From a virus, in IMG/VR virus record IMGVR_UViG_3300045684_000050, positions 1 to 64,000 of that record: a stretch of 64,000 bases of DNA, one strand, 5' to 3'. Of this stretch, positions 19,271 to 39,422 are shown one piece after another (the first letter of the stretch is position 1; each line of letters opens with the position of its first letter). The notes under the pieces are model-generated. The model was given only the letters and a program-made list of their open reading frames with translations. It made no database searches and had not been told where the DNA came from. Position numbers and translations under genes: made by a program.

Positions 19271-19867
19271 CTACTCTACTAAGACGATGTAATCATCTGT
19301 AATTGCAAAATCTATTGCTTCCACAAATACGTCAGGGTAGTAAATCCCACAATATCTACTTGTCATCACATATACAGCGGAGTCCGGAGATGTTGTTGCT
19401 ACACCATAAATTGGCAAACTTATTCCAGGCAAATAGTGCAGATAATCAGACCCTTTTGATATAATCGTATGTATAGCTCCACCTATGTAAGGAACTTCAT
19501 CTGGACCTACTGATGGACCTATATTCTTCATAAACAATGTATCTGCATTAAAAGTATCACAATCCTCATAGAACTTGAATGCACAGTTATTGATTAATTC
19601 CGATCCGATTCCACCACCTCCTTCAATCCAAAGAGTATTTTTAACTGGTGGTAGTTTGTATACGAACCTGCAGCTCCTTGGTTGTGATGCTCTTTTATCT
19701 TTTATGATAGGTATTGAAGACAATGAGGAGTCACGATCCGGGTGATCATCTGGACATTTATATACAACACTTATTGGTCCAAATCCTGTAGTATCGTTTA
19801 AGTCTTTATCACATGCAAAAAAGACGACTATAGTAAATACGAATAATGATAATATTGATTTTTTCAT
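19271..19867 (-). CDS. Predicted lipoprotein (198 aa)
   Basis: MKK + hydrophobic stretch + lipobox FFAC followed by acidic DKD. Confidence 0.75.
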   Translation of the reverse strand: MKKSILSLFVFTIVVFFACDKDLNDTTGFGPISVVYKCPDDHPDRDSSLSSIPIIKDKRASQPRSCRFVYKLPPVKNTLWIEGGGGIGSELINNCAFKFYEDCDTFNADTLFMKNIGPSVGPDEVPYIGGAIHTIISKGSDYLHYLPGISLPIYGVATTSPDSAVYVMTSRYCGIYYPDVFVEAIDFAITDDYIVLVE

Positions 19868-19920
19868 GTTAGATTAGTTTAATACTTTGTTAATTTATGA
19901 GTAGTTCCATTACATGAGAT

Positions 19921-20394
19921 TTAAGTCCTCTTGTTTTTATTTTTGAAGCAATCTACACAAGATCCTTTTTTCGAAGGACCAGGTATTTTCCTTGCTATTA
20001 TGCTATCCTGAGTTACTATGTAAGTATATATGCTGTCTATTTGGGGCACATATGGCAACGTGTAAGAGATAATGTCACATCCGACTACTTGTGAAGGCCT
20101 ATTAAATTGAAGCCCTGACATGCCATCTAATTCGTTTATCTGGTACTCGATTATCCAGCTATAAAACTTAGATTCAAAAAAAAGAAATACTGGATCTCTA
20201 TCGACTGGGAAAACACATTGGTTATTATACAGTCCAAATGTTACAGAAATAGTGGTATCCTGCCCATGGCATACTTCGTATATCCATTCTGATGTACATC
20301 TCTTCTCATTATTTTTTACCTCAATGAAGTTCACTAACTGAGCTTGAAGGAAAATCAATGTAAAGACGAATATGGTTGTTAATATACTTCTCAT
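19921..20394 (-). CDS. Predicted secreted protein (likely start ATG 20394, MRSILTTIFVFTLIFLQAQ)
   Basis: Sec-type signal peptide; TATCTTTG box at 20400-20407; the frame stays open upstream through hairpin site S1. Confidence 0.7.
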   Translation of the reverse strand: MRSILTTIFVFTLIFLQAQLVNFIEVKNNEKRCTSEWIYEVCHGQDTTISVTFGLYNNQCVFPVDRDPVFLFFESKFYSWIIEYQINELDGMSGLQFNRPSQVVGCDIISYTLPYVPQIDSIYTYIVTQDSIIARKIPGPSKKGSCVDCFKNKNKRT

Positions 20395-20435
20395 AAAACC
20401 AAAGATAATTATTTTATTTATAAATTGAAAACACA

Positions 20436-20494
20436 TCCTAACAGTCGCTGATGATTCCATTTTTTTCAAAACGGAACATAGATTGGTGTTATAT
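20436..20494 (-). repeat. attC-like site S1 (59 bp, short family)
   Basis: ATATAAC-accaatctATGTTCC..GGAAtCATcagcgact-GTTAGGA; the 3' 20 bp are identical to S8. Confidence 0.75.
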
Positions 20495-20498
20495 GCAA

Positions 20499-20702
20499 TT
20501 ATAAAAGAGCCTTGTGGTCACGGATGGAAATTTCACATTGAGCTACCTTGCTACTTAATTTCGCTTGTAGTTGTTTGTATGTTTCATCTTTCAACCCAAC
20601 ATCGGTGTTTAACTCTTCAATTCTGTTCCAAAGCCAAAGCCATTTATCACGCTCTTTTTGCTTTTTATCAATATGAAATTCAATACTTGTTTTATTTGAC
20701 AT
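20499..20702 (-). CDS. Cassette ORF, hypothetical (67 aa)
   Basis: Between S2 and S1. Confidence 0.7.
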   Translation of the reverse strand: MSNKTSIEFHIDKKQKERDKWLWLWNRIEELNTDVGLKDETYKQLQAKLSSKVAQCEISIRDHKALL

Positions 20703-20720
20703 AATCGTTTAAATAACTGC

Positions 20721-20837
20721 CGCCAACAATGTATATAAGCCATTGTGTCGGTTCATTTCTGAAAGTGAATAGTTAATATTTATATTTGTTTTTCAATTTA
20801 ATTCTGTATTCAACGGCTCATATACAAACCGTTAGTC
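20721..20837 (-). repeat. attC-like site S2 (117 bp, long family)
   Basis: GACTAAC-ggtt-TGTATATGAGCC ... GGCTTATATACA-tt-GTTGGCG. Confidence 0.8.
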
Positions 20838-21038
20838 GCCATTAGACAATAGTTTTTCATGGTCTGATATAGATTTGTCTAGATAATACCATCTATTGTT
20901 TATGACCGTATGTATTTTTTTATACACCTCATCGCTCATTGAATTATCTGCATGTAGAATATCAGTGTATTCTTTGTACTTTTTTAGGGTCTCTTTTTCG
21001 TTTTTTATTTTTTGGATATGATGTTTTATTAAGTCCAT
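20832..21038 (-). CDS. Cassette ORF, hypothetical (68 aa from ATG 21038; in-frame TTG at 21077)
   Basis: Stop TAA lies inside the GGCGACTAAC box of S2. Confidence 0.7.
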   Translation of the reverse strand: MDLIKHHIQKIKNEKETLKKYKEYTDILHADNSMSDEVYKKIHTVINNRWYYLDKSISDHEKLLSNGD

Positions 21039-21068
21039 TTGAATAATTTTAGTGGTGAAATAAACGGC

Positions 21069-21136
21069 GACTAACAAAGTTTATCACGCTATGTCTCCCG
21101 ATGGTCGCCACATCGGATACACTTATCACGTTAGTG
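21069..21136 (-). repeat. attC-like site S3 (68 bp)
   Basis: CACTAAC ... TCCGATG-tgcgac-CATCGGGA ... GTTAGTC. Confidence 0.8.
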
Positions 21137-21517
21137 ATAATGCCATTCGAGCTTTTGCCCACAATTTGAGCAATTATTATCACCATGACCTATTTCTACT
21201 TCCTTACAATTTGGACAGATATACATTGGTGCACCATTATCCCATTGTTCATACGGGTGTTTATCTTTAATTTCATCAACAACTAAGGCACTATCACTAA
21301 CACCCAATAAACCCAATAATTTTAACTGTTTAATCTTACCTTCTTCTTCAATAAACCTAACTATTTCATCTCGTAGTCCTTCAAGATGTTCTGTAAGTGA
21401 TAATGAAGCTGGTGGTCCATCCCAAGATTGGAATTTAATCGCATTTTCTCTTGTTTGATATAAGTACCCTTGATTAAATTTCTTCTTAATTTTTTCAGTC
21501 AAAATTTTATTGTCCAT
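21131..21517 (-). CDS. Composite cassette ORF with a C-terminal Zn-ribbon (CPNC...CSNC)
   Basis: Internal GTTAGTGATA box at 21292-21301 marks the fusion point; stop lies inside S3. Confidence 0.75.
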   Translation of the reverse strand: MDNKILTEKIKKKFNQGYLYQTRENAIKFQSWDGPPASLSLTEHLEGLRDEIVRFIEEEGKIKQLKLLGLLGVSDSALVVDEIKDKHPYEQWDNGAPMYICPNCKEVEIGHGDNNCSNCGQKLEWHYH

Positions 21518-21546
21518 TTTTTTAATTTTATTAGGTAATAAAAAGC

Positions 21547-21676
21547 ATATAACAATAAATATAAGTAATAGGGCGAAGGAACGACTTTCACGGTCTGTGT
21601 TAAGCTATTTTATAAGCGAAACATTCATAGGTTTGATTCTCACATAAGCCCACTACTCATATTCTTGTAATTAGGT
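21547..21676 (-). repeat. attC-like site S4 (130 bp, long family)
   Basis: ACCTAAT..AATATGAGTAGTGGGC ... GCCCTATTACTTATATT..GTTATAT. Confidence 0.75.
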
Positions 21677-21680
21677 ACAA

Positions 21681-21860
21681 TTAAACCCAACTCTTCCAAT
21701 GTGTAGGTGTATAATAAACATACATACTTCCATCAGGTATCCACCAAAGTTTACCATCAAACTTTAATTCTTGCTCATTCCTTGTTCCGTTTTCATCTTC
21801 AATTCTAGTCATCATCACCTTATTCTTTAGTGTATGCTCTTCTGTTACTTTTTTCCACAT
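21681..21860 (-). CDS. Cassette ORF (59 aa, DUF551-like), paralogue of 25350..25550
   Basis: Not in the ORF track; ...RNEQELKFDGKLWWIPDGSMYVYYTPTHW. Confidence 0.8.
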   Translation of the reverse strand: MWKKVTEEHTLKNKVMMTRIEDENGTRNEQELKFDGKLWWIPDGSMYVYYTPTHWKSWV

Positions 21861-21870
21861 AATTAACTGT

Positions 21871-21993
21871 GCCTAACAATGTGTATAAGCAATAGCCGTT
21901 AGGCATTTTAAACTATTGCAGTTGGTAATATTTAAGTTTCTACTTCTAATCAAGTTCTGTATTCGGCTACTTGCCATATAATTAACGTTGTGC
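21871..21993 (-). repeat. attC-like site S5 (123 bp, long family) with two extra stacked left boxes at 21995-22001 and 22007-22013
   Basis: GCACAAC..GGCAAGTAGCCG ... CGGCTATTGCTTATACACATT-GTTAGGC; loop shares AATACAGAA and TAAATATTA with S2. Confidence 0.8.
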
Positions 21994-22021
21994 GGTTATA
22001 CTAAGCGTTACCTACAAGTGC

Positions 22022-22795
22022 TTACTTCTGTGTTCCAAATAAAGTTTGTGCTTGTAAATCTTTTTCTTTTCTTTTTTCTTCCACCCTCTTTTTTGAGTTA
22101 TCAAAGTGTTCTGTTTCGTTCTCAATACCAATGCCATTCCTATTAGTTTCAATACAAGAAACCATTGTTGTTCCACTTCCCATTGTCATATCCAATACCG
22201 TTTCGCCTTCATTTGTATAGGTATTAATCATATAAGAACAAAGTTCGGTTGGCTTCTGTGTTGGATGTAATTTACCGCTACTATTGTGGACGCATTTGAA
22301 GTTTAACAATGCTGTATCAGGAGAAATCCAATCGCTTTGTCTATCCAAATATTCTTCTTTTTGCTTTCCGTAGTTGCTTGTTTTCGAGTTGTACTTATTA
22401 CCGCTTTTGACCTCTGTAGTTCTTTTTTTCTTCTGTGGATTGTAAGTCGGTGGCTTTTTATAAAATACCTGCAAAGTTTCGTGTCCACCCATAGGCATTC
22501 GTCTTGCGTTTAGGTTTCCAGTCTTTAAGTTTTTTACCCATACCCACTCGTATTTGTGATATTTTATTTGTGAACTTATTAGAGTGGTTGTAAACGGTTG
22601 AGCAGAAAAAATAACTACTGCTGCATTAGGTTTACATACACGCCATACTTGTTTCCACATTTCTCCCAAGTCAATTATACTATCCCATTTGTTCTGAGTA
22701 GTCCCATAAGGCAAGTCGCAAAGTATCATATCAACACTTCCGCTTTCAATCGTTTTCATTACTTCGAGGCAATCGCCATACTTTAAGTCAATCAT
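22022..22795 (-). CDS. N4/N6 DNA methyltransferase (beta class), cassette cargo
   Basis: YGDCLEVM, DMILCDLPYG, HPTQKP, VLDMTMGSGTT. Confidence 0.92.
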   Translation of the reverse strand: MIDLKYGDCLEVMKTIESGSVDMILCDLPYGTTQNKWDSIIDLGEMWKQVWRVCKPNAAVVIFSAQPFTTTLISSQIKYHKYEWVWVKNLKTGNLNARRMPMGGHETLQVFYKKPPTYNPQKKKRTTEVKSGNKYNSKTSNYGKQKEEYLDRQSDWISPDTALLNFKCVHNSSGKLHPTQKPTELCSYMINTYTNEGETVLDMTMGSGTTMVSCIETNRNGIGIENETEHFDNSKKRVEEKRKEKDLQAQTLFGTQK

Positions 22796-22894
22796 ATATT
22801 TTAATTTTTCAAATTAATTTTGCCAACGCTCAAAAAAAGAAGAAAAAAGGTCTGTGTTTATAATCAAAGTTTGTGCTTTAAAGTCGCACCAGAC

Positions 22895-22955
22895 ATACAA
22901 CACGTAATATAATTAATGGCAAAAAAGCCACTAACCATATTACCATACGTTATCT
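22895..22955 (-). repeat. attC-like site S6 (61 bp); additional orphan GTTGGCA box at 22821-22827
   Basis: AGATAAC-gtatgg-TAATATGG-TTAGTGGC-tttttt-GCCATTAA-TTATATTA-cgt-GTTGTAT. Confidence 0.8.
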
Positions 22956-22960
22956 ACAAA

Positions 22961-23167
22961 CTAATCCTCATTTGCTAATTTATCACGCCATCCAATAATT
23001 TCTTGGCAAGCACCCGTACAAAAACATTGTTGGTTTTTGCACCCTTTTTTTATAGCTACTTTTCCGTTAGTCTGTTCTTTCATTGCATCAAATTTGAAAG
23101 TAATGTTGCTGTTATCGGCTATAAAATCATTGCATTGTTTTTCTTTTGAAATGTTTTTTGTACTCAT
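22961..23167 (-). CDS. Cassette ORF (68 aa) whose start and first ~20 codons lie inside site S7
   Basis: QCNDFIAD is encoded by the right arm of S7. Confidence 0.7.
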   Translation of the reverse strand: MSTKNISKEKQCNDFIADNSNITFKFDAMKEQTNGKVAIKKGCKNQQCFCTGACQEIIGWRDKLANED

Positions 23168-23243
23168 AATTTTATGCTTTTAATTAATATTATTGTTTTA
23201 TTTTAGGTCGGCAACGAGAGTTTACCCGTAGCCGTTGTTGTAA
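23108..23243 (-). repeat. attC-like site S7 (about 136 bp; right box degenerate and inside the CDS)
   Basis: TTACAAC-aa-CGGCTA...GTTGC pairs with GCAAT...TAGCCG. Confidence 0.6.
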
Positions 23244-23252
23244 AACACAGCC

Positions 23253-23807
23253 TCACTTAACTAATCGTTCTTTCAACCATTCAGCCCCAGCTTTAAAAGA
23301 GCCGTAATTATCTCCTGCTGTATTGTTATTATTGCTCCACTTGTGGCCATTCAGATCAAACACCCAGTGGTCGGCTGCATCTGCAATTTGTTCATCGCTC
23401 GGCAACCAGTTTAAAACAATGTGTATATTGCATTGCTGATTTAGTTCTGCACATAGCTTAGTATTCGCAGCATTTTTACGAGTGCTATTAAGAAAGTCTG
23501 CATATTCTTTTGCATAGATTTCTAATCCTTTTGGGAATATTACAACCTCATAACCTCTTGCATCTAATACTGATCGCATATGCTTTCTTCCAACTCTAAA
23601 TGGCTGAAAAAAAACGGGTGCTAACAAATTATTTACGTCAGTTTGGTTATCTTTCTTTTTTAGTTCTCTATTCCAAACCATATTTATAGAGTCAGCATTA
23701 TTTTCTATAAATCTGCTGTCCCACTTTAAAAAGGATAATAACATATTTAGTAAGTCAGCTATAATCGCCAAAGGACTTAGTATTGTTTTAATTATAAGTA
23801 TTAACAT
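23253..23807 (-). CDS. Three-part composite cassette ORF (184 aa)
   Basis: Internal right-arm relics at NNLLAP (GTTAGCACC, 23617-23625) and QCNIHIV (ATATACACATTGTT, 23415-23428). Confidence 0.7.
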   Translation of the reverse strand: MLILIIKTILSPLAIIADLLNMLLSFLKWDSRFIENNADSINMVWNRELKKKDNQTDVNNLLAPVFFQPFRVGRKHMRSVLDARGYEVVIFPKGLEIYAKEYADFLNSTRKNAANTKLCAELNQQCNIHIVLNWLPSDEQIADAADHWVFDLNGHKWSNNNNTAGDNYGSFKAGAEWLKERLVK

Positions 23808-23837
23808 AATTTAAGTTTAAAAAACATCATAAACACA

Positions 23838-23892
23838 TCCTAACAGTCGCTCACGATGCCATCTTTCAGACGGCACATAGCTTGTCTTTATG
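23838..23892 (-). repeat. attC-like site S8 (55 bp, short family; left box degenerate)
   Basis: caagctATGTGCC-gtctgaaagat-GGCATCGT-gagcgact-GTTAGGA. Confidence 0.75.
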
Positions 23893-24328
23893 TGTCATCA
23901 GATAGTAGCCTTTTCTTTAATACTTGGGTACAGAAATCATCTTCTTTTATATCACCATCAGCGAAGCAATGATCCCATAATTCAGTATTCGACATAGATA
24001 AAATATCATTCTCATATTCAGAGACCCCATTTTCAATATTTTGTTTTAATCTAATCCCAACTAAAGCATCATTAATGCCTCTCAACATTTTAGCCTTCTT
24101 TGGATCTTTCCCCTGTACCGCATCAGCAGTATCTATTAATGTACGCTTTTCAGTATGCCTAACACCTTCTACCTTATCTTCATATCTGCGTATAGTAGCT
24201 AATGCTTCAAAGAAGTCTTCAGTATCCCAATTTTCCCAACAGGCGTGAACCATTGCATGATTAAGGTACCATTTTTTTAAATTTTCGCTGATTTTCATAA
24301 GTTGAAATTTATGCACGATTGATAACAC
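23888..24328 (-). CDS. Cassette ORF, hypothetical (about 136-146 aa)
   Basis: Between S9 and S8; stop lies inside the left box of S8. Confidence 0.75.
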   Translation of the reverse strand: MLSIVHKFQLMKISENLKKWYLNHAMVHACWENWDTEDFFEALATIRRYEDKVEGVRHTEKRTLIDTADAVQGKDPKKAKMLRGINDALVGIRLKQNIENGVSEYENDILSMSNTELWDHCFADGDIKEDDFCTQVLKKRLLSDDT

Positions 24329-24384
24329 TATGTATGATGTCAGACTCGTGCCTCATCCGAACACATACATTTTAACCGTTAGCG
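24320..24384 (-). repeat. attC-like site S9 (65 bp)
   Basis: CGCTAAC..ATGTATGTG-TT-CGGA-tgaggcacgag-TCTG-a-CATCATACAT-agt-GTTATCA. Confidence 0.8.
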
Positions 24385-24588
24385 AAAATAATCACCTAAC
24401 AATTTTATTATTTCATTTGATATATCTTGCCTACCTTGAAAGTATTTAACATTTGAACTATTGTGAGGTAATTTACCTATTGTTTCGCCTGATTCTTTTT
24501 TGTCATTTTTGACAAAAGAATTTACTTTTGCTAACAAGGTATAAAGTTCATTGCTTAAATCTTTTTTGAGGGTATTTTCTGTACTCAT
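24379..24588 (-). CDS. Composite cassette ORF (69 aa) with a site-derived leader ELYTLLAK
   Basis: Internal GTTAGCAAAA at 24526-24535; stop lies inside S9. Confidence 0.7.
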   Translation of the reverse strand: MSTENTLKKDLSNELYTLLAKVNSFVKNDKKESGETIGKLPHNSSNVKYFQGRQDISNEIIKLLGDYFR

Positions 24589-24617
24589 AATTTAAGTTTA
24601 AAAAATATTATAAAGTT

Positions 24618-24680
24618 ACCTAACAGTCGCTATATGATCATTCTCCTTGCGTCGAACGACTACATAGCTTAGTGTTATCA
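24618..24680 (-). repeat. attC-like site S10 (63 bp, short family)
   Basis: TGATAAC-actaagctATGT...CATATagcgact-GTTAGGT. Confidence 0.8.
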
Positions 24681-25058
24681 TCAATTGATTCCAAAACCAC
24701 CATCTACTATTTCGATACATTCATTTACACTATCTTTTACTTTGTAGTCATAATTTCCTCCATCATCTTCTTCTAGTATGCTTTTCAGCTTTCTCATCGA
24801 GTTGATATTTTCTAGTTTTGATTTCCCTATCATTTGATGCTCTAGTATTACTTTGTCACCATTTGTTTCATAGTCTTCATCGTACCCTTTTAGGATTCGT
24901 AGTATGTGGTAATCGTTAGTGTCTGGAGTGATGTATATTTTTTCATACTCATCATACATTCCTTCAAAGTTCTTTTTTGCGAACTCTGTTATGTCTGTCG
25001 CTTTTGCAAATTCAAATTTCATTGTTTTAGTTTTTACGTTTAAAAAAGATGATAACAT
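24681..25058 (-). CDS. Cassette ORF, acidic hypothetical (113-125 aa)
   Basis: Between S11 and S10. Confidence 0.75.
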   Translation of the reverse strand: MLSSFLNVKTKTMKFEFAKATDITEFAKKNFEGMYDEYEKIYITPDTNDYHILRILKGYDEDYETNGDKVILEHQMIGKSKLENINSMRKLKSILEEDDGGNYDYKVKDSVNECIEIVDGGFGIN

Positions 25059-25114
25059 GGATTATACTCCATATTCCGCTTTGCTCCATACATGATCATA
25101 CTCAGGCGTTATAC
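25050..25114 (-). repeat. attC-like site S11 (65 bp)
   Basis: GTATAAC ... GTTATCA; inner stem imperfect. Confidence 0.7.
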
Positions 25115-25363
25115 AGAATGTAAAGAAAGCAGATAGTCAGCGGCTTGTATCTCCTTATCAAACCATCCCTCTGGATATTCAACCCATCTTTTATTTTCTG
25201 TTTTCATTTCAACTAATCTAAGCCGCCAATCAAGCAGTTCATTAATTGATGGAAGTTTATTTGTTCTTTGATAATCGGATATTAATACACTCTGTATAAC
25301 ACCCGATATGTCGCTATATTCGTTCCTCATACATCGCATATCTTTACCGTTAGTGACCATTAA
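25109..25363 (-). CDS. Cassette ORF whose start codon and leader (MRCMRNEYSDISGV) lie within site S12; exact start uncertain
   Basis: 3' part of ORF 25109..25447; stop lies inside the left box of S11. Confidence 0.55.
   Translation of the reverse strand, partial: LMVTNGKDMRCMRNEYSDISGVIQSVLISDYQRTNKLPSINELLDWRLRLVEMKTENKRWVEYPEGWFDKEIQAADYLLSLHSV
25294..25355 (-). repeat. attC-like site S12 (62 bp)
   Basis: CACTAAC-ggtaaag-ATATG-CGATGTAT-gaggaacga-ATATAGCG-a-CATAT-cgggt-GTTATAC. Confidence 0.8.
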
Positions 25364-25550
25364 TAGAAGAAAGAACATAATCCCAATAATGGGTAGGAGA
25401 ATAGTAAACATACATGGAGCCATCGGGAAACCACCAAAGTTTACCATCGAATTTTAATTCTTGTTCATTTCTAACTCCGTTTAGGTCATCAACCTTGGTT
25501 TTCAAGATTTTATTTTTCGGAGGATTTTGTTTCGATATTTCAATCCACAT
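25350..25550 (-). CDS. Cassette ORF (66 aa, DUF551-like), paralogue of 21681..21860
   Basis: RNEQELKFDGKLWWFPDGSMYVYYSPTH; stop lies inside S12. Confidence 0.8.
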   Translation of the reverse strand: MWIEISKQNPPKNKILKTKVDDLNGVRNEQELKFDGKLWWFPDGSMYVYYSPTHYWDYVLSSINGH

Positions 25551-25556
25551 GATTTT

Positions 25557-25925
25557 TTAATTTGAGTGACGTTGTGAATATACCCGAAGGCAGTTTTTAC
25601 AGGCATTGCCGAGAGGTAGGTTTATTGTCATCCTAAAGTTGCCATTTTCATCAAATCCACGTCCGCAAATTGGAGCGGAAACATGGCTTGCTGGAATTAG
25701 ATTTTTAGAGTCTTTTCCTTCTCCGGCTTCATATACGAGGTGTAATTTTTGACCTCCTTTGATTTGCATATATCGCATGATAAATAATTGAAAAGATGAA
25801 AAGAAAACGGTCATTAACAAGGTACTCAACGTCAATACCTCCCATACGGTCGGTACTGCGTGAGTACAAACCGATATGTCCATTGCTCGTGCCTCACAAC
25901 GGCACATAGCCAAACCGTTGTGCAT
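25557..25925 (-). CDS. Cassette ORF; the N-terminal ~38 aa are site S13 read in frame, the true start is probably MRYMQIK
   Basis: C-terminal part KLHLVYE...APICGR...CKNC. Confidence 0.65.
   Translation of the reverse strand: MHNGLAMCRCEARAMDISVCTHAVPTVWEVLTLSTLLMTVFFSSFQLFIMRYMQIKGGQKLHLVYEAGEGKDSKNLIPASHVSAPICGRGFDENGNFRMTINLPLGNACKNCLRVYSQRHSN
25812..25923 (-). repeat. Composite attC-like site S13 (112 bp, two hairpins in tandem)
   Basis: GCACAAC..TATGT-GCC-GTTG-tgaggcacgag-CAAT-GG-ACATA, then GTACTCA-CG-CAGTACC..GGTATTG-a-CG-tTGAGTAC-ctt-GTTAATG. Confidence 0.75.
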
Positions 25926-25930
25926 AATAG

Positions 25931-26092
25931 CTACACACCAGATATACCCAATAATTTTAACTTAGCTTGGTGGTATTCTTCCATCGCATCGCTTATTCCA
26001 ATGTGTATATTGCCAATCATATAATAATACTCGCCAACGTGTTTCTCTAATATTTTAAGTCGTTCTCTATGTTCTATTGCTTCTTTGTTCAT
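25931..26092 (-). CDS. Small ORF (53 aa, ...HQAKLKLLGISGV*) ending at a degenerate right box
   Basis: Not in the ORF track; preceded by a left arm ATACAAC-gcttac-GGCTATG (26138-26144). Confidence 0.6.
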   Translation of the reverse strand: MNKEAIEHRERLKILEKHVGEYYYMIGNIHIGISDAMEEYHQAKLKLLGISGV

Positions 26093-26156
26093 TTCTGTTT
26101 TATTTAGTCGTTAAAATTTCTGTGCATAGCCGTAAGCGTTGTATCACATACGCCCA

Positions 26157-26294
26157 CTAATAATTCAAGCAACTACGGAAGTATTGTAACCCTTTTCCGT
26201 ACCCCCAATACCATCTGTGGCTTATTGTGTACATTCCAAGAAATCCATGCTCTACATAAGCCCATTTTTGTTGTCTGTTAAATCGTATTTTCAT
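26157..26294 (-). CDS. Small Trp/Tyr/Gly-rich ORF (45 aa), first cassette position
   Basis: Not in the ORF track; MKIRFNRQQKWAYVEHGFLG... Confidence 0.5.
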   Translation of the reverse strand: MKIRFNRQQKWAYVEHGFLGMYTISHRWYWGYGKGLQYFRSCLNY

Positions 26295-26448
26295 ATTCCT
26301 TTGAGTTACTCCTATTTATAACGCAAGTTAAAATAATATTTTAACTTAAGCAAATTAATTCGTACATCATGATTAACAATAACAAAATATAAATGATAGA
26401 AGACATTATATGTAACTGTGATAAATATATAGTTACATGTTCAGGTAG

Positions 26449-26670
26449 CAAGTTTGGGCAATAATAGAACGATGGAATATAGTAGTTCATCCTTGCTATT
26501 ATGCCGGGTGGTCTCGATGTTCTTGTAAATTTTGCACCTTTGGAAACAAAGGCCAATTTGCCAGTTCATTTAAAGTAAGCCTAAAACAAGGAGAAAAAAT
26601 AATCCAATGTGAAAAAGCTTATCCAGGAATCACATTTCAATTTATCGCTATAGCAACATCAAAAGAATAA
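26449..26670 (+). pseudogene. Fragment of a PAPS-reductase-family (Fe-S, DndC-like) gene
   Basis: No start codon, upstream TAG; reads QVWAIIERWNIVVHPCYYAGWSRCSCKFCTFGNKGQFAS. Confidence 0.5.
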
Positions 26671-26759
26671 AATGGAAATATATTTACAGGTGACTGGAAA
26701 TTACCAGCAGGTTCCTATGGTAAATCATATGGGCCAACCTAAATATCTACAAATTTATT

Positions 26760-29700
26760 TTACATATCTTCTGTATCGATACTTAATATAAGTCTTCTAA
26801 ATATCACCTCTACATTCGCAGGTTTAAGACTAAGTAATCTTATAACTACATAGTCATCATTAAATACTCCTTTCTGTTCTTTTTGGAGATCCCCAGCTTC
26901 ATAAATCTTTAATTCACTGTTATACTTGTTAAGTGGTGAAATACCATCAGGTACTTGATTTTTAAATTCTTCAACAACGATCCGGTTAGTTGACATTCTA
27001 AACTTAATTTCATCAGTCTCATTGATGTCGTTCAACAGATTCTCGTCAGTATCAATACCTAAATCTCTGAAATCTAACCATCCAGTAGATTGTCTTCCAT
27101 TGTGTACACTAAATTTCTCAAATAAAGGTATATCTAATTCAGTAACTACATCTCCATTATGTTGAAGCACCTCTCCAACCACCATGAAATTCCTTACTAT
27201 CCAATTCTGATATGTCTCTTTATCTACAATCGGAATCTCAACATACACAGGCGTAAGCTGTCCATAATATTCATTAAACCTACCTTGCACAAAATGTGTA
27301 TAGATGATACTCTCACTTAAACTAAACAGTTCAAATCTATTAAACAGAAATAAATCAGGTCTGTATAAATGGAAAGATAAGTAATATTGATTCTTAATAC
27401 TAAACGATACCAAGAAACTCTCATCCTTAAATCCTACTGGATCTCCTAATGTAATAGGACTGCCTTCTCTCATGAATTTGCCGTCACTATAAGTTGTTCC
27501 AGGATGACAGCTAAAGTCATATTTATATAGGTATATGATATCTTTCGCATAATCTATTCCTATATCGAAATATACTCCATCCTTACACTTTTGATCTACT
27601 ATGCTGAAGTCCGGGACATCATCCAATATTTTGAACCGTAAGTTCTCATCCATAAAATCTTCAAGACCTTTGAATGTGATATCCGTATCCTGTCGCCCTG
27701 TATACATCTTAAACCTTCTAGCATCTCTGTCAATATAAAAATATCCTCTGGCCGTTATCTTCGATGCATTAGGATCTTTATTCCCACCGTATCCAGTAAT
27801 TGCTCCTCCGTATATGTCTACCGGCTCGCCAAACAAATTAGCTTGTCCTAATAATATCTCTGTAGAATCTAGTTGAAGCCTTTGTCCTTTAAATGGCACA
27901 TGAAATATAGAATCAGTAGTATGAACACTCAATACATTCTGCATGTATATAAGCCTAGATATTTGACCTCGATCTCTTGGAATGGTTAATAATTGATTAG
28001 GTTTGAAATTTCTCCAGCTATCTAAATGGCTTTCTAATACCTGTTGATCTGACATTATAATCTTAGATGAATATCTACCTTCACATACCTGGGTGTCATA
28101 GTTCAATGGCATCCCAAAAATAAATCCTTCATAATTGATATCTGAGTGACTTACATCGTAGTTATAATGATTGTCCTCGAATCCTTTTGCTCTACCTGGA
28201 TCCATGGCAAAGTCTCCTCCGGGACCATCAGGCATCTTTCTGTCAGGTCTACACCATTCTAATCCTAAGATGCTATCTATAACTTTGTTATCAAGGTCTG
28301 AGTTTGCCCAATCTTTAATCCAAATGATACCTGCAGCTATTAATGCTATACCAAAACCCACAGCAAGTCCAGCTCCAACAGATCCGGCGAAAAAGAACCC
28401 ACTACCAATTTTTGATAAACCAGTATAAATAGCGATAATACCTTGATAGATAAAAAAGAATCCTGGTCCATATACCCATATGATATTTAATATCATTCTA
28501 AGTATCATCTTCCATCGTGGCGGTTCTTCCATAAAGAAAGCTATTCTATCTAACCATCCAAGTTCATAATCAGTACCTTCAGGAAAACTACTATCTAACT
28601 TCAATGTCTTTAATCTATCTTGATGTACCTCTGCAGTTCCGAAATCTAAGTTCTTATAATCACCTATTCTTATTGCCCCTGCTGCCCTATAATGTAAATT
28701 AGCATCTGACTGTAAGTAAGTCCTTACTAATGTCTTTAGTAAATGAGGAAAGTATGCATCAGGTGGTGTCTGTAATGTTATTGTAATAAACCATAGCTTA
28801 ATAATAATACCATCTTCTGATGGTGGTAATAATCCTGCCCCATCCTTGTCCGTTATAGCTCTCATTCCCCTCCTTAGAGATCCTAATGCATTCCTTACAT
28901 CATCTTTATCACCTGTCATAGGAACAGTGCCACATTCTTCAAAACCTGCTACCTTTAATATAGATCTAGCAATTGATGTCAGTAAATCAGAAATAACTCC
29001 ACCAATGATAGGAATATCAACTTCTATCTCTACAGAACCAAAATCTCCACTAGGACTTATTTCTTCAGGAACCTTATCAGATACAAATGCCGACCTCTTT
29101 ACACTAAAAGGACCAGTAAAGCTATCTCCACATATACCTTCCACTTCTCCTGTATCAAAACTTGTGCTGTCACCATGCAAACCTATAGGTATATATACCC
29201 TGTTTATAGAGCTGCCATATTGATTAGGCAGGTACTTCATTGTTGTTACATTCCAAGCTCTTGAGTCACCGATTAAACTTTCATGATCAATAGTATCACC
29301 AATGAAACTCAAATCATCAGCTCCATCACTACCATTCAATGATCCGGCTAATGGTCTGCTTCCGTTCTCTAAAGCTATCTTGCTACCATCAATCTCGACA
29401 TACATAGAACTCTCTCTATATGTATTCACTAAAGTATGAGTGAATTTATTATCCTTTGTGACTATAGAATCTGCAGGTGCATACTTCATTGCTTTTAAGC
29501 ATCTCAATATTGGACCTCCATCAGATCCTATTGGCGGCTGAAAATGATTCAATGATATACTCTGTGTTGTTCCGGCAAGATTTAACTTACTCTCAAATGG
29601 ACTCTCTGCAGGCCGGCCTTCAGAATATTGCTTGAATCTCCAACCACATCCAAATGTCTCTTGCTCGATTAGCAAATAATCACCATCAGTCCTTTTACCC

Positions 29701-32171
29701 CACAAGTGAATGTCAGACCCATGCAATATATAAGCAGGTACAGTAGATGCTGATCCTCTTCTGAATGTATTATTCCCTCCTGGATTGATGTCTTTATCGT
29801 AATATTCCAATGAATTAACCCCTAGTTTACCAAATAATGCTGTCTCTCCCTGAATCAAACCTGAATAAGTACCTATCATTAGGTTGTTACCAATGTTTGT
29901 TTTGTTCTGCTCAGTTCTAGGAGCATAGTATATGGTAAAAGGATTGGCCTTGCATAATCTTTTCTTAAATTCATCCGGAAGACTCTCCATTATCTTTTTG
30001 ATAGATAGTCCAGTAAAGATGGCAAAGGTGTCTCCATCAGGAGTATTGATGACATCATACTTATTCTCTACTCCACTCCTTAGAGATACATAATGTGGCT
30101 CTTTCGTTAATGAAGGAACTCTAAACCCTCTGACATTCTTCCCTGCCCACTCTCTATATACTGGAGGACATCCTTCTTCAGCTTTATCAACAATATCAGG
30201 ATATAACTGGTTAGTAAGTCCACAACCAAAGATGCCTTCGCTGTAAGGGATAGGAATAATATTAGAGACACAATCTAAATCTGATCCTAATATGTTTGGA
30301 CTAAAACCATTTGTATCTGTACCTCTAGCCTGTATATCTCCTCTTAATGATTGCCCTGATGGGAATGTCTTGTTCTTATTATCTCTCTTATACTCAGTCT
30401 GCTTGTCGTAGTGATAAGCATTATTTACATACTTCCATTTACCTCCCTGACACTCATAGCATGTCTGGCCGGAACATCGGATCTCTCCTTCTTTACTACA
30501 AGCTATCTGTGTATCTATATATTTTATCTTGTCACTAGGAGTTTTTGTGTCTGCATCGATCTTGGCAAAGTTCTTATTAGCATTGGGTAATGCTTGCTCT
30601 CTGGCACAATCAATAGGACTATGCCAACAATCCATATATAATGATGAATTTGCACCAAAAAAATCAGCTATAGCTATAATAAGATTATCTAAAAAAGATC
30701 TATTACAGTTAGCACAATCCAAATACTCATCTGCGTAATCTAACGCTTCTTCATCACCTGGAGTAAGAAATCCCTGGACATCACCTTCATCTCCTGAAGT
30801 CGTAGGAGGATCAACAATATTGCCAGGATCCGTAGCAGATTCTGTGCTCGTATCTCTAGGATCTATCTTAGGAGTTATGTTATTGTCAAACTCGAACTTC
30901 TCATTGCTATTGCTAAACTGCTCCTGGAATGCCTTGGATAACTCATTGGCATCAGTAATGTATAATTTTGTTCTTTGGGATGTATCTTGATAGGTAGGTA
31001 CTGCACACGTTCCACATTGTTCCCCTATAGGAGCACACTGACCCATATGATTAATGAATTCAAATGCTTTGGTCCGGGTGCCATCATCAAAGTTGAAACC
31101 AATGGCAGGAATATACATCTCATTAGCTTTCAATCCTTTATAATTCTTAGCTTCAGACATAGGTACTGCCCAACGCTTATAAAATACCTCCATCTTATTT
31201 ACATACTGCTGTAAACTCCAATCTCTCTCAGGCTCGACATTGAATAAGACTAATCTACCATCTACCGATTCATGATCTGCACCATTGTAATTGTGCTTGA
31301 TTCTGCTAGTAAGCTCAGTAAGCTTATCATCACCATCAGCAACATAACCCTCAACACCTGTATATGTATATCTTAGATATCCATTTCCGTAGCCTACATT
31401 CTCTATAACCCTGTATGTTTTTTTGGAATCTATTGTCCCGATGATCACTATGTCAGCTAGACTATATTCTTTCGGTAAGTCAGCGATCTCCATGGCTAAT
31501 GCTCCTTTTCCTTCTTCTCCAGGTCTGAAGTCTCCATGAGCAACACTTAGCGGTTGGCTGGTAATTGAATAATTGGTAGGATTACCATCGCTATCCTTTA
31601 CTCTTACAGATACTTTATAACTTCCATTAGCTAACCTGCCCATGCCATCGATGACAACAACTTTAGCTACTGCCACACACTTAGGTCTACATAACTTGGT
31701 ATCTGTGTAATCACAACAGGGATCTGTAATGTTTATAACCCGGTATACATTATCCGTCTGGAAATAAATGTGGATGTTATTGCAGTGAGATACATAGTTG
31801 ACATCTATATCTGTCCACACACAAGGAGAAAAACCTAATGGCATGTCTAACCCTGATGAGCTGTCATCCATTACTTTCATATACTGCTTTCTTTTGTAGT
31901 CTACTACTCCAACTTCTGATTGACCACCATTTAATATGAATGTAATGAAAACATCTTCTTCTTCTAATTCATAACACCCTCTCAAGTCTGCTCCTTCAGG
32001 AAGACATACTGATATCTTATTTGCTGTATCCGAAGAAATATAAGATAAAGCATGATCGGCTTGCTTCTTTGTAGTTCCGTAAGAATTAGTATAAGTATGA
32101 TCAGGCTGTTCTTGTGGTATTCCATCCCTATAAAGATGTGAAAATAAACGAACAATCGACTTTATTGGCAT
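26760..32171 (-). CDS. Large tail protein, crAss-like muzzle/stabilisation-protein type (1803 aa)
   Basis: N-terminal LYRDGIPQEQPDHTY, beta-rich and Cys-rich, C-terminal SFHLYRPD/FNEYYG pattern; family call by eye. Confidence 0.55.
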   Translation of the reverse strand: MPIKSIVRLFSHLYRDGIPQEQPDHTYTNSYGTTKKQADHALSYISSDTANKISVCLPEGADLRGCYELEEEDVFITFILNGGQSEVGVVDYKRKQYMKVMDDSSSGLDMPLGFSPCVWTDIDVNYVSHCNNIHIYFQTDNVYRVINITDPCCDYTDTKLCRPKCVAVAKVVVIDGMGRLANGSYKVSVRVKDSDGNPTNYSITSQPLSVAHGDFRPGEEGKGALAMEIADLPKEYSLADIVIIGTIDSKKTYRVIENVGYGNGYLRYTYTGVEGYVADGDDKLTELTSRIKHNYNGADHESVDGRLVLFNVEPERDWSLQQYVNKMEVFYKRWAVPMSEAKNYKGLKANEMYIPAIGFNFDDGTRTKAFEFINHMGQCAPIGEQCGTCAVPTYQDTSQRTKLYITDANELSKAFQEQFSNSNEKFEFDNNITPKIDPRDTSTESATDPGNIVDPPTTSGDEGDVQGFLTPGDEEALDYADEYLDCANCNRSFLDNLIIAIADFFGANSSLYMDCWHSPIDCAREQALPNANKNFAKIDADTKTPSDKIKYIDTQIACSKEGEIRCSGQTCYECQGGKWKYVNNAYHYDKQTEYKRDNKNKTFPSGQSLRGDIQARGTDTNGFSPNILGSDLDCVSNIIPIPYSEGIFGCGLTNQLYPDIVDKAEEGCPPVYREWAGKNVRGFRVPSLTKEPHYVSLRSGVENKYDVINTPDGDTFAIFTGLSIKKIMESLPDEFKKRLCKANPFTIYYAPRTEQNKTNIGNNLMIGTYSGLIQGETALFGKLGVNSLEYYDKDINPGGNNTFRRGSASTVPAYILHGSDIHLWGKRTDGDYLLIEQETFGCGWRFKQYSEGRPAESPFESKLNLAGTTQSISLNHFQPPIGSDGGPILRCLKAMKYAPADSIVTKDNKFTHTLVNTYRESSMYVEIDGSKIALENGSRPLAGSLNGSDGADDLSFIGDTIDHESLIGDSRAWNVTTMKYLPNQYGSSINRVYIPIGLHGDSTSFDTGEVEGICGDSFTGPFSVKRSAFVSDKVPEEISPSGDFGSVEIEVDIPIIGGVISDLLTSIARSILKVAGFEECGTVPMTGDKDDVRNALGSLRRGMRAITDKDGAGLLPPSEDGIIIKLWFITITLQTPPDAYFPHLLKTLVRTYLQSDANLHYRAAGAIRIGDYKNLDFGTAEVHQDRLKTLKLDSSFPEGTDYELGWLDRIAFFMEEPPRWKMILRMILNIIWVYGPGFFFIYQGIIAIYTGLSKIGSGFFFAGSVGAGLAVGFGIALIAAGIIWIKDWANSDLDNKVIDSILGLEWCRPDRKMPDGPGGDFAMDPGRAKGFEDNHYNYDVSHSDINYEGFIFGMPLNYDTQVCEGRYSSKIIMSDQQVLESHLDSWRNFKPNQLLTIPRDRGQISRLIYMQNVLSVHTTDSIFHVPFKGQRLQLDSTEILLGQANLFGEPVDIYGGAITGYGGNKDPNASKITARGYFYIDRDARRFKMYTGRQDTDITFKGLEDFMDENLRFKILDDVPDFSIVDQKCKDGVYFDIGIDYAKDIIYLYKYDFSCHPGTTYSDGKFMREGSPITLGDPVGFKDESFLVSFSIKNQYYLSFHLYRPDLFLFNRFELFSLSESIIYTHFVQGRFNEYYGQLTPVYVEIPIVDKETYQNWIVRNFMVVGEVLQHNGDVVTELDIPLFEKFSVHNGRQSTGWLDFRDLGIDTDENLLNDINETDEIKFRMSTNRIVVEEFKNQVPDGISPLNKYNSELKIYEAGDLQKEQKGVFNDDYVVIRLLSLKPANVEVIFRRLILSIDTEDM

Positions 32172-36762: not shown

Positions 36763-37686
36763 TTAGATAACTTTTCTTATTGCATCGTTTATGTAGAATT
36801 GGGTGTCAGTCTTTATGATGATATCTGAAGGATCTTTTGCTATGTCACAATGGATAACTTTATCTGTCTTTAGCAACCTGGAGACTACAGTATTATAAAC
36901 CCATCCTGCCGAATCATTATCCCCCCACACTAACCTTATTGGAAATCGTTCTATTAGCTCTGGTGCCATCTTCTCTAATAAGCTGAACATTCCTTCACCT
37001 GAAGTACAGAACGCTTTATACTCATAAGAACAAGCTTCCACACTTACAATATCCTTCATACTTGTAACTGCTATTAGAATATTCCCATTTCTAGGAAGTG
37101 TATCATAGCCTTCTAACTGCCTCATATTTTCATGCCAGAACTTATGAGGTCGATCACCATAAAAATTAAAAGGAGCATAGCCTTTCTTTCCTCCACCTGC
37201 AGGCCAAAAGAAACCAAAATTATCAACACTTGATGTGAAATAGTTTTTAGATAATTTATTAACACTTACTAGTCCTTGGTATTTGTGCCTGTGAAGTAAT
37301 TCCCGAGGAACAAATAAAGACTTAAAATAGTCATAGTGCTCTAACTGTAAAGGCTTCGTTTTAAATGTCAAGGGAATAGAAACATTAGACATTCTCTGCA
37401 TATAACTCCTGGAGTTACTTATCTGTCCATAATTACCGGACTTTATAACTTCCAATGCTTCTTCCCTTGAGCTAACGCCTATCTCCATTTCTGCTACAAA
37501 TCCTATCACATCACTGCCAAAATTTCCTGCATAGCCAAAATCCTTCCAGTATATCCTCTGATTATACATCTTGGTTGAAAAAGAAGGATTATCATCAGAC
37601 CTTCCAGGCAGTGGAGACTTTATTTTCTTACCAATCTGATAATGACTCCCTATATAATGACGATATATAGAAAGCTCGTCAAACAT
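36763..37686 (-). CDS. DNA primase (Toprim; crAss-like type)
   Basis: SPLPGRSDDNPSF...YWKDFG...GDVIGFV N-terminus; TSMKD; WGDNDSAG; KDPSD. Confidence 0.8.
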   Translation of the reverse strand: MFDELSIYRHYIGSHYQIGKKIKSPLPGRSDDNPSFSTKMYNQRIYWKDFGYAGNFGSDVIGFVAEMEIGVSSREEALEVIKSGNYGQISNSRSYMQRMSNVSIPLTFKTKPLQLEHYDYFKSLFVPRELLHRHKYQGLVSVNKLSKNYFTSSVDNFGFFWPAGGGKKGYAPFNFYGDRPHKFWHENMRQLEGYDTLPRNGNILIAVTSMKDIVSVEACSYEYKAFCTSGEGMFSLLEKMAPELIERFPIRLVWGDNDSAGWVYNTVVSRLLKTDKVIHCDIAKDPSDIIIKTDTQFYINDAIRKVI

Positions 37687-38165
37687 TATTTGATTTGAAT
37701 AGTCTTCTTAGGAACAAAGATAGCGTTGAATTTATTCTCAGGATTATCCTTGGCCCACTTCTTAAAGTCTGCTAATTTAATCTTTTCTACTATTTCCTTA
37801 ACTACAAATTCTTTAGGAACTTTATCATAAAAGAAATCAGATCCTTTCCTATATCCAATATTGACTACATCTTTTTTGTATGATTCCATTTCATGGACTC
37901 TAAGATATGTGTCAATATTCATAGAGAACCAATTCAATGAATTCTGAGCAGACTTCTTCATAGCAGTAAGCCTCTTTATCTCTTTGTCTATTGCGTCAAG
38001 TTCATCACTCTTCATCTTGTATACGAAATAGTATCCTCTTATCTTATCTTCTCCGTCTGCAATATTCTTGTCATAAGCTTCTAATAATTCATCAGTTGCT
38101 TCTCCTGACTCTAACAGTTCTACCAATTGTAGAAACTCTTGGTTTATTTCATATAACTTTGCCAT
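37686..38165 (-). CDS. Siphovirus Gp157-family protein
   Basis: MAKLYEI...K...Y......EI.RL...KK pattern. Confidence 0.8.
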   Translation of the reverse strand: MAKLYEINQEFLQLVELLESGEATDELLEAYDKNIADGEDKIRGYYFVYKMKSDELDAIDKEIKRLTAMKKSAQNSLNWFSMNIDTYLRVHEMESYKKDVVNIGYRKGSDFFYDKVPKEFVVKEIVEKIKLADFKKWAKDNPENKFNAIFVPKKTIQIK

Positions 38166-38236
38166 ATTCTTAATTTAATTTAATTGTCAATTATTCATAC
38201 TTATGGATATCATGTCATAAGTAAAGGCTACCATGA

Positions 38237-39397
38237 CTAAAATGGTAAATCCTCATAATCCTGTAATGGTGGTGCATCTTCAGGGAAATTAGTATTCTCA
38301 ACACCTGGAGATTTAAAAACTAATCTATCAGGTCTCACTCTATCTTGCCCTACTGCAGGGGGTGGCTGCATCTGTGGTGGCGGTGGAGCTTGTTGTACCT
38401 GTGGTGGTGGCTGTGGTGGTTGATATTGCTGTACTGGAGGCCCTTGTGGTGGAGCTATCGGTGGTGCTTTAACAGGAGGTGGAAATCCAAAATCATCAGG
38501 CCTGGTAGCTTGTCCAAACCCAGCTTGTGGAGAATCAGGAGGTTTTTGGTATCCACCAACTTGCCTTGAAGGGTCAGTATTGTACGTCTGATTTATCGGA
38601 GGTGGTGGTGCCGGCTGCTGATACTGTTGCGGTGGTGGTGCCGGCTGCTGATACACATGAGCCGGAGGTTGCGGCTGCTGATACTGTTGCGGTGGTGGTG
38701 CCGGCTGCTGATACTGTTGCGGTGGTGGTGCCGGCTGCTGATACTGTTGCGGTGGTGGTGCCGGCTGCTTACCTGTAGTCTGCGGTGCATATTGCTGCTG
38801 TTGTGCATATTCATCATATTCGTTTGGGCCCTTTATGCTTTTCAAAATACTTAGCTTGTGAGCAACATCCTGAGTAAACCAACTATACAATGTAGCATTC
38901 TGCTCCCTATAATCCCAAGTCATCCCTTCATACCCCCTAACCTGTACAGGCGGTGGTAAATTATCTGAAGAATATGCTGGAGTTAACTTACTACCGTCCT
39001 GGAATAAATTTAACCCTACATTCCTTTTTCCATCATTCCCGGTGATATCATAAGGAACAATAGTCATTTCTTTCATAATATCTACGTTCCTAAAAATCTT
39101 AGCAAACCTTTTGCCATATCCACTATCAAAAGGAAATGCCAATGAAATTTTATCACCATCAGACTCCATCCATAACCGGATCTCCATGGCATTAAACTTC
39201 TCGTTATTCTGAACTTTAATATCAGAAATATGAGCACTAATGCTACTGAATGAATAGTAGTACAATATACTACCATCTTTCTTCTTTCTAGTGTTCAACT
39301 GATATTGTGGCTGCTCTGGTTGCTCATTAAATGATTGTGTCAACTTACCATTGTAAAAAGATAAGTAAGATGACGAAGATGCTTGTGTTACCTTCAT
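38237..39397 (-). CDS. Probable single-stranded DNA-binding protein with a long Pro/Gln linker
   Basis: Folded N-terminal ~190 aa, PQ-rich linker, acidic C-terminal tip DYEDLPF; located in the replication cluster. Confidence 0.65.
   Translation of the reverse strand: MKVTQASSSSYLSFYNGKLTQSFNEQPEQPQYQLNTRKKKDGSILYYYSFSSISAHISDIKVQNNEKFNAMEIRLWMESDGDKISLAFPFDSGYGKRFAKIFRNVDIMKEMTIVPYDITGNDGKRNVGLNLFQDGSKLTPAYSSDNLPPPVQVRGYEGMTWDYREQNATLYSWFTQDVAHKLSILKSIKGPNEYDEYAQQQQYAPQTTGKQPAPPPQQYQQPAPPPQQYQQPAPPPQQYQQPQPPAHVYQQPAPPPQQYQQPAPPPPINQTYNTDPSRQVGGYQKPPDSPQAGFGQATRPDDFGFPPPVKAPPIAPPQGPPVQQYQPPQPPPQVQQAPPPPQMQPPPAVGQDRVRPDRLVFKSPGVENTNFPEDAPPLQDYEDLPF
38601..38770 (-). repeat. Coding tandem repeat, 30-bp unit (QPAPPPQQYQ), about 5-6 copies, one degenerate
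   Basis: GGTGGTGGTGCCGGCTGCTGATACTGTTGC repeated on the + strand. Confidence 0.92.
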
Positions 39398-39422
39398 GAT
39401 ATAATTGTGATTTAAAAATTAA

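Follow-up and report, generated by a model that had tools for sequence, protein, structure and literature searches.

In T4-type phages, PeSL (promoter-early/stem-loop) cassettes are small accessory genes bounded by a repeated stem-loop that undergo modular shuffling between relatives, and their exchange is thought to be homology-driven and to occur between the promoter-bearing repeats. In CTX-type phages, the folded single strand of the phage is the substrate of the host XerCD, a tyrosine recombinase provided in trans, and the whole phage integrates at dif. Here we analyze an array of hairpins found among small minus-strand genes in the first 64 kb (64,000 nucleotides, hereafter the window) of IMG/VR record IMGVR_UViG_3300045684_000050, a complete 116.8-kb genome of a marine, lytic-type phage. 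This region is probably a cluster of attC-family recombination hairpins without an integrase (a CALIN), whose cassettes are exchanged at the AAC triplet of the hairpins. CALINs have been described in virulent phages, Polaribacter phage P12002L among them (Qi et al. 2023, PMC9892861). As in our array, they are integrase-less clusters of attC-like hairpins located between small genes of lytic phages, and DNA methyltransferases are frequent cargo. However, they contain as few as two predicted sites, with two in P12002L, whereas we find 8-13 sites here and about 17 in another phage. Moreover, Qi et al. (2023) read their sites in the canonical orientation, whereas here the polarity is inverted relative to the genes. 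Their paper does not mention the complementarity of cassette ends, the variation in cassettes that separates P12002L from P12002S or the presence of a single site family in phages unrelated to each other.

The other close comparison is the sedentary chromosomal integron of the marine gammaproteobacterium Aliiglaciecola litoralis, whose sites have in common with those of the phage the AAC/GTT core, the unpaired spacer, the inner stem and a variable apex (including the same 20-mer), as well as one strand that folds better through G.T pairs and complementary cassette ends. Its sites are ~99 nt long, compared to 41-124 nt in the phage, and it has the integrase in the same genome and its genes mostly on the top strand, whereas in the phage the genes are on the bottom-strand equivalent and no integrase was found, either in it or in its likely host family. 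With respect to PeSL cassettes, the array differs in having a shared core of 3-6 nt, in the relationship of its elements to attC and in that no promoter is evident, and compared to the CTX-type phages the involvement of Xer is only a candidate. Integron-type sites on lytic phages have been reported only recently, as small clusters, and what is new here is the size of the array, the spread of its site family across unrelated phages, the inverted polarity and natural cassette differences that fall mostly at AAC, together with the fact that neither the phage nor the Flavobacteriaceae searched yielded a cognate integrase.

The hairpin family in the window and in other genomes

The small minus-strand genes between 26.3 and 20.4 kb are followed by imperfect hairpins of about 41-124 nt, according to sequence reading and constrained folds; integron attC sites measure about 57-141 nt. 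The hairpins start with YAAC and end with (T)GTTR, and TAAC includes the stop codon (TAA) at five sites (c, d, f, m, and n). From 5' to 3', an unpaired spacer of 5-7 nt leads into a bulged inner stem of 8-17 bp with a variable apex, and 2-4 unpaired nt precede (T)GTTR. AAC and GTT are found in 11 of the 13 window sites and are near-invariant in the alignment of the family described below. The word families that a preliminary description of this DNA, made from its letters alone, had noticed among the sites are all present: AGCGACTGTTAGG is common to e, g, and o, ACATTGTT to k and n, and TGAGGCACGAG to b and f.

We built a covariance model (R1) from 20 elements of other contigs, none of them from the window, and used it on the 116,794-bp genome. 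R1 recovered eight sites, all on the minus strand and all within 20427-25931, six of them at E<1e-4 (values from 5e-12 to 1.5e-5 for b, f, n, c, i, and e) and two, o and d, at E 0.03-0.09, and a single marginal match (E 0.79) was found elsewhere in the genome. The attC-like hairpins of the preliminary description are therefore structured, one-stranded and clustered in 5.5 kb according to an independent model, although its figure of at least 13 was slightly generous: eight sites are supported by the model, 12-13 are recognized by eye and the remainder are degenerate. A bare YAAC..GTTR hairpin descriptor was not enriched genome-wide with respect to shuffled sequences, so the signal lies in the family and its clustering and not in the bare motif. 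The comparison with the Flavo-1 motif that had been proposed gave nothing, as no Rfam family, Flavo-1 included, matched the window at its gathering score, nor did looser thresholds reveal anything relevant, either E<=10 over 19500-27500 or E<=5 for eight outside loci.

The site family extends well beyond this genome. Site b has at its apex a 20-mer, GTTGTGAGGYACGAGCAATG, which recurs as the apex of a hairpin preceding a methyltransferase gene in the Polaribacter phages P12002L and P12002S (P12002L/S), and a scan with this 20-mer found 15 IMG/VR contigs and 10 GTDB contigs. In nearly all the phage and Flavobacteriaceae cases it is part of one element composed of YAACGG, stem, apex, stem and GTTGTTA. 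The family is found in at least 15 IMG/VR phage contigs, in contigs of Flavobacteriaceae metagenome-assembled genomes (MAGs) and in P12002L/S. The alignment of 20 elements has a consensus fold of 21 pairs, in which 94.3% of the cells pair (26-46% when the partners are slid), and four G.U (G.T) pairs are invariant or nearly so. Covariation, which had been set as the test that could refute the stems, is present in this alignment: compensatory changes affect eight pairs, a count attained by only 2 of 500 shuffles, and none of the shuffles had a covariation score as high as the real one. R1 also revealed one-stranded arrays in other phages, namely about 17 sites (E<=0.01) that span 22 kb at an end of a complete 93-kb phage, in which the open reading frames (ORFs) are on the same strand as the sites, five sites in a 47-kb phage and five in P12002L. 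The R1 match at 29996-30067 of P12002L is the published P12002L_attC1, which, like its primer sequence, places attC1 in the family of the window, and the earlier statement that no characterized example was known on such a phage was wrong. The site-bearing phages measure 34-117 kb, have 29-47% G+C and almost no genes in common.

Several other searches for members of the family were unproductive. The methyltransferase of Cellulophaga phage phi18:3 turned out to have an ordinary terminator and no such site, the pattern AGCGACTGTTAGGA gave 73 matches in viral contigs, of which those inspected look like chance or coding matches, a gapped pattern of e/g/o matched once, in an unrelated terminator, and a scan of a single metagenome with the end of cassette c>d returned six chance matches. 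For the sites recombined by IntI1 in Pseudoalteromonas phage H101 (named PH101 by Qi et al. 2023), R1 gave only marginal values (E 0.22-0.94), from which neither a link nor a polarity was derived. In a Winogradskyella MAG contig (L104, 7193-7274) the 20-mer apex is found on a different hairpin devoid of the AAC/GTT arms, and the apex may be a module with its own function.

Cassette ends, breakpoints and polarity

The hairpins delimit cassettes whose ends are complementary. When the 7 nt after GTT of each of 12 sites were compared with the 7 nt before AAC of every other in a 12x12 matrix, the consecutive sites b>c, c>d, d>e, and m>n reached 6, 7, 6, and 7 of 7 complementary positions, with no other between-site cell above 5. 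As a consequence of this complementarity between consecutive flanks, a gene's last codons reappear, as their reverse complement, at the start of its leader. In the 93-kb phage, three consecutive pairs and no other cells of the matrix reached 7/7, the cassette of one of the methyltransferases (MTase-A) of P12002L/S has complementary ends too (GTTGTATG and CATACAAC) and the same is true of the bona fide integron array when it is read on its bottom strand. Inverted pairs of GTT+7 and 7+AAC are not more numerous genome-wide than in shuffles, and only the short-range pairs of consecutive sites are special. These observations support the delimitation of cassettes by the hairpins. On the coding (minus) strand, the unit of exchange would then start at the C of AAC, continue through the unpaired spacer of 5-7 nt and the imperfect inner hairpin to (T)GTTA, and be completed by a variable flank, a short leader and the gene, followed by the complementary flank and TAA. 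Cassettes would be joined in the AAC of the 5' arm or beside it, and the hairpin would travel with the downstream gene.

Natural differences between relatives are located mostly at these junctions. P12002L and P12002S are 98.6-99.9% identical in blocks and differ by whole cassettes, and four of the five site-associated breakpoints are at YAAC/G-type junctions (the slash marks the breakpoint). The gene ending in ..GCAGGTAAC is followed by the MTase-A hairpin in P12002L, whereas in P12002S it is followed by the hairpin of a second methyltransferase (MTase-B), the MTase-B gene ending in ..GCTAAC and then the MTase-A hairpin. A whole MTase-B cassette is thus extra in P12002S, between ..GGTAAC and the MTase-A hairpin. 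The MTase-A block ends at CATACAAC, and two more breakpoints are at ACAAC/GT and before AACGG. Because the blocks end at YAAC/G, it is with the downstream gene that the hairpin moves, and not with the upstream gene as had been assumed. We also observed a second variable block (P12002L 37265-39700) in which ~2 kb are replaced in P12002S, which starts at ACAAC/GT and contains further R1 matches and methyltransferase genes.

In the phage population of what is probably the source sample, a sediment metagenome, as seen in Logan contigs, breaks are found at the same positions. One contig starts exactly at the C of the AAC of site d (25108), two contig-end nodes at site f overlap only in its AAC (24378-24380) and at site e there is a break 2 nt before TAAC (node 24649-24678). 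The depths of the pieces between the breaks are 15.4 and 17.9 and that of the junction contig is 12.4, compared to 21.3-22.3 in the flanks, and no intragenomic 20-mer repeat that could explain the contig breaks was found in the genome. This suggests that part of the phage population carries other cassettes at 24379..25058. The two minus-strand cassette genes on the pieces of lower depth, 24681-25058 and 24379-24588, are probably carried by only part of the population. At four of the P12002L/S breakpoints and at the breaks in the source sample, the identity at the junction is limited to 3-6 bases.

The polarity of the array was read by comparison with A. litoralis. Its genome contains three IntI genes (389-450 bits, with an NCBIfam cut-off of 265 bits), and the 20-mer is the apex of ~99-nt repeats (TATAACGCCCC..GATTGTTATAC) in a classical cassette array whose ORFs, one of them a CdiI-like immunity gene, are on the strand opposite to the motif. 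The four best R1 matches beside two of the intI genes are weak (E 0.017-0.49) and all of them are on the intI strand, that is the bottom strand, and again opposite to the cassette ORFs. The bottom strand of the Aliiglaciecola sites folds 6.6 kcal/mol better than the top, and in the phage it is the coding strand that is favored, by 7.7 kcal/mol over the complement and in 13 of 14 sites (2.2-2.6 in a compositional genome control). Bulges are present in the phage sites, and the strand preference runs through G.T pairs as it does in Aliiglaciecola. Since the Aliiglaciecola motif is antisense to its ORFs and shows the same folding bias, the coding strand of the phage corresponds to the bottom strand of an integron, and its genes have an inverted orientation inside the cassettes when compared to usual integron cassettes. 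The junction that we observe, at the AAC of the 5' arm, is homologous to the canonical AA/C cut. The polarity given in the preliminary description, which expected breakpoints at G/TT, has to be reversed: the junction is not at the distal GTT of the coding strand but at the gene-proximal AAC, which corresponds to G/TT on the other strand.

Proposed recombination, its possible enzyme and the competing explanations

If the hairpins are recombination sites, exchange could proceed via folded single-stranded DNA with circular or tandem intermediates. The catalyst would be a tyrosine recombinase from outside the phage genome that acts in trans: the IntI of another bacterium, a Xer-like enzyme of the host or one not yet recognized. 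Because the folding strand is the transcribed strand, the same hairpins would also form stable mRNA structures between cistrons. The array is not a complete integron, which would comprise an adjacent intI, an attI site and a Pc promoter: PF00589 is absent from the entire phage genome, and the array is at most a CALIN. Two or more clustered attC-type sites with no integrase nearby characterize a CALIN, and here there are eight model-supported sites in 5.5 kb, on one strand and with no integrase, an assignment that depends on taking the sites to be of the attC type. We also looked in eight site-bearing phage genomes for a shared gene that could encode the recombinase, and the methyltransferase cargo was all that came up.

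Several observations weigh against recombination at attC-type sites. No tyrosine (PF00589), Y1 HUH (PF01797) or serine (PF00239) recombinase was found in the complete phage genome, PF00589 was found in only one of the 15 site-bearing viral records, and no IntI was found in 301 Flavobacteriaceae genomes with the same model that matched three times in Aliiglaciecola. The cassette-capture platform of the preliminary description consequently remains unproven. The four outer box positions of the sites depart from RYYY/RRRY, and R1 matches true attC sites only marginally (E 0.013-0.5). P12002L_attC1, the one member of the family assayed at the bench, was alone among six phage sites in failing to recombine with IntI1; its prediction came from HattCI with no support from Infernal, whereas that of attC2 had both (PMC9892861). 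Furthermore, one of the P12002L/S breakpoints is located 11-14 nt inside the conserved 5' stem word and not at AAC, and a breakpoint within a conserved element fits a homology-driven exchange. Finally, the population evidence comes from Logan contigs of one run, the only public run with this phage and probably its source. As for the single site-bearing record with PF00589, it is a 64-kb phage with direct terminal repeats in which a tyrosine recombinase gene is ~3 kb from three sites and a methyltransferase cassette (21.3-25.9 kb).

The main rival to the CALIN is a hairpin that works at the RNA level, as a stabilizer, processing site or weak terminator of a polycistronic early/accessory transcript, with shuffling as a by-product of homologous or microhomology recombination in the way proposed for PeSL. 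Such a role would account for the favored folding of the transcribed strand, for the invariant G.U pairs and for the conservation of the 5' stem word (TTGTATATGG-like) and the apex, with one P12002L/S junction inside the word. It would equally suit the intercistronic position of the sites in a co-oriented gene block, with leaders of 16-47 nt that leave no room for separate promoters, and the failure to find a recombinase in the phage or an IntI in the 301 Flavobacteriaceae genomes. However, the cassette genes of the IntI-bearing Aliiglaciecola arrays lie on the strand opposite to the motif, so an mRNA role cannot explain the shared architecture or the G.T bias. Moreover, the 3-6 bases shared at four of the five P12002L/S breakpoints and at the breaks of the source sample are too short for ordinary homologous recombination, and the complementarity of cassette ends would be expected only if each gene had once been flanked by identical elements. 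We therefore regard this explanation as unlikely, although it is the one to be taken most seriously.

Two other explanations are less probable still. In the first, the units would be mobile elements associated with palindromes, and a host HUH (Y1) transposase like those of IS200/IS605 or REP/RAYT would move them as single strands, cutting at TAAC by the foot of the hairpin. A junction at a fixed tetranucleotide 5' of the hairpin foot, the strand-specific folding and the formation of tandem arrays in which the end word of one unit is the next target would all be expected of such elements. We nevertheless find it improbable, as PF01797 was not found in the phage, each unit has one hairpin and not subterminal hairpins at both ends, and the elements are kin, in sequence and in architecture, to the attC repeats of IntI-bearing integrons. 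That the palindromes are chance features or ordinary terminators which resemble attC could be argued from the bare descriptor, no commoner than in shuffles, and from the lack of an Rfam family. This idea is already contradicted by an independent model that reaches E 5e-12, with sites on one strand and in 5.5 kb out of 116.8 kb, by the covariation and by the conservation of the family across unrelated phages, and we give it hardly any credence.

A single site family makes up arrays of some 8 to 17 hairpins, and the phages concerned have almost nothing in common but a methyltransferase cassette; phages may swap accessory genes through such arrays. Natural gain and loss of cassettes occurs in them mostly at one triplet, and no integron integrase was found in the phage or in the Flavobacteriaceae genomes searched. 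If the exchange is enzymatic, an unrecognized recombinase, or an unrecognized use of a host one, shapes accessory and anti-restriction genes of marine phages. A broader and more tentative proposal, which we consider rather doubtful, is that unrelated lytic marine phages take part in a shared cassette-exchange network based on inverted attC-type hairpins, which would function without an integron integrase and with a host Xer-like or unrecognized recombinase, the hairpin doubling as an RNA structure. The inverted polarity predicts which strand and which arm are cut, and this is testable in the cultivable phages P12002L/S and their Polaribacter host.

Individual sites, cassette genes and the phage

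All sites and cassette genes mentioned in this section are on the minus strand. Site b (25812..25931) consists of a hairpin of the family consensus, CAACGG.. with apex GTTGTGAGGCACGAGCAATG, followed by an extra hairpin and GTTAATGACC, and its R1 match covers 25855-25931 with 54 bits (E 5e-12). In site c (25285..25363; 36.2 bits, E 6.5e-7) TAAC holds the stop codon of gene 25350-25550. Site d (25041..25122) scores 18.2 bits (E 0.09), and site e (24609..24688; 31.4 bits, E 1.5e-5) belongs with g and o to the family of AGCGACTGTTAGG. Site f (24311..24392; 39.5 bits, E 7e-8) has TGAGGCACGAG as its apex. Site g (23830..23895) has a degenerate 5' arm, with AAAGAC for AAC, and a fold of -23.7 kcal/mol; its 3' half is common to e and o, and it was missed by R1, as was site h (~23209-23250), a partial copy (CAACGGCTACGGGTAAAC) related to attC1 of P12002L that was recognized by reading.

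Site i (22886..22963; 33.2 bits, E 4.6e-6) is upstream of the methyltransferase gene and is homologous to the hairpin before MTase-A of P12002L/S, with 74.6-79% nucleotide identity from the hairpin into the gene start and a compensatory change in the stem (GTAATAT with ATATTAC versus GTTATAT with ATATAAC). Sites j (~21980-22015) and l (~21690) are weak or degenerate copies, and site k (21867..21907) is a short folded hairpin, GCCTAAC..GTTAGGC, the sole site whose own flanks pair (5/7). Site m (21065..21139) was recognized by its fold. Site n (20712..20845; 38.8 bits, E 1e-7) is a long-loop member. Other contigs of the same sample have the stems of n with 2-3 nt of filler in place of its 67-nt loop (20744-20812, with the joint at 20744>20812), which may reflect an insertion in the loop of n or a deletion in the other contigs. 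Site o (20427..20502), which was also folded, is the last of the array (19.8 bits, E 0.03).

Among the cassette genes, 22022..22795 encodes an N6/N4 DNA methyltransferase (PF01555, E 1e-27), and this is the only gene family common to six of the eight site-bearing phage genomes compared. Genes 25350..25550 and 21681..21860 are paralogs (61% identity, E 1e-29), and the former gave a tblastn match to a phage protein annotated as DUF551. The pair shares a DUF551-like conserved motif and is flanked by hairpins from different site families. Gene 21131..21517 encodes a protein with a C-terminal zinc ribbon (PF13248, E 4.5e-6, 26.4 bits, just below the Pfam cut-off of 27 bits). A 15-nt inverted repeat of the GTTA../..TAAC kind (21287-21301 and 21130-21144, 93% complementary) brackets only the zinc-ribbon part, which looks as if it were a sub-gene cassette fused in frame. 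Homology between gene 25931-26092 and the N-terminal part of 21131-21517 was considered and rejected (BLASTP E 4.2, with only ~23 nt of DNA shared).

The source record has direct terminal repeats, is rated complete and has a G+C content of ~34%, with its genes on the minus strand from 12 kb on. No close relatives were found in an IMG/VR search with the flanking and cassette proteins, a look-up of exact protein matches returned none, and the best match of its helicase is that of phage csAssE-Sib (41%), followed by Cellulophaga phages (~35%). The array lies between a gene of structural type encoding 1803 aa (26760-32171) and gene 19921-20385, and no such hairpins were seen in the intergenic regions downstream of 20.4 kb. 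The plus-strand early block of the window includes a gene for a RadC-like JAB domain (3275-3730; PF04002, E 7.5e-33).

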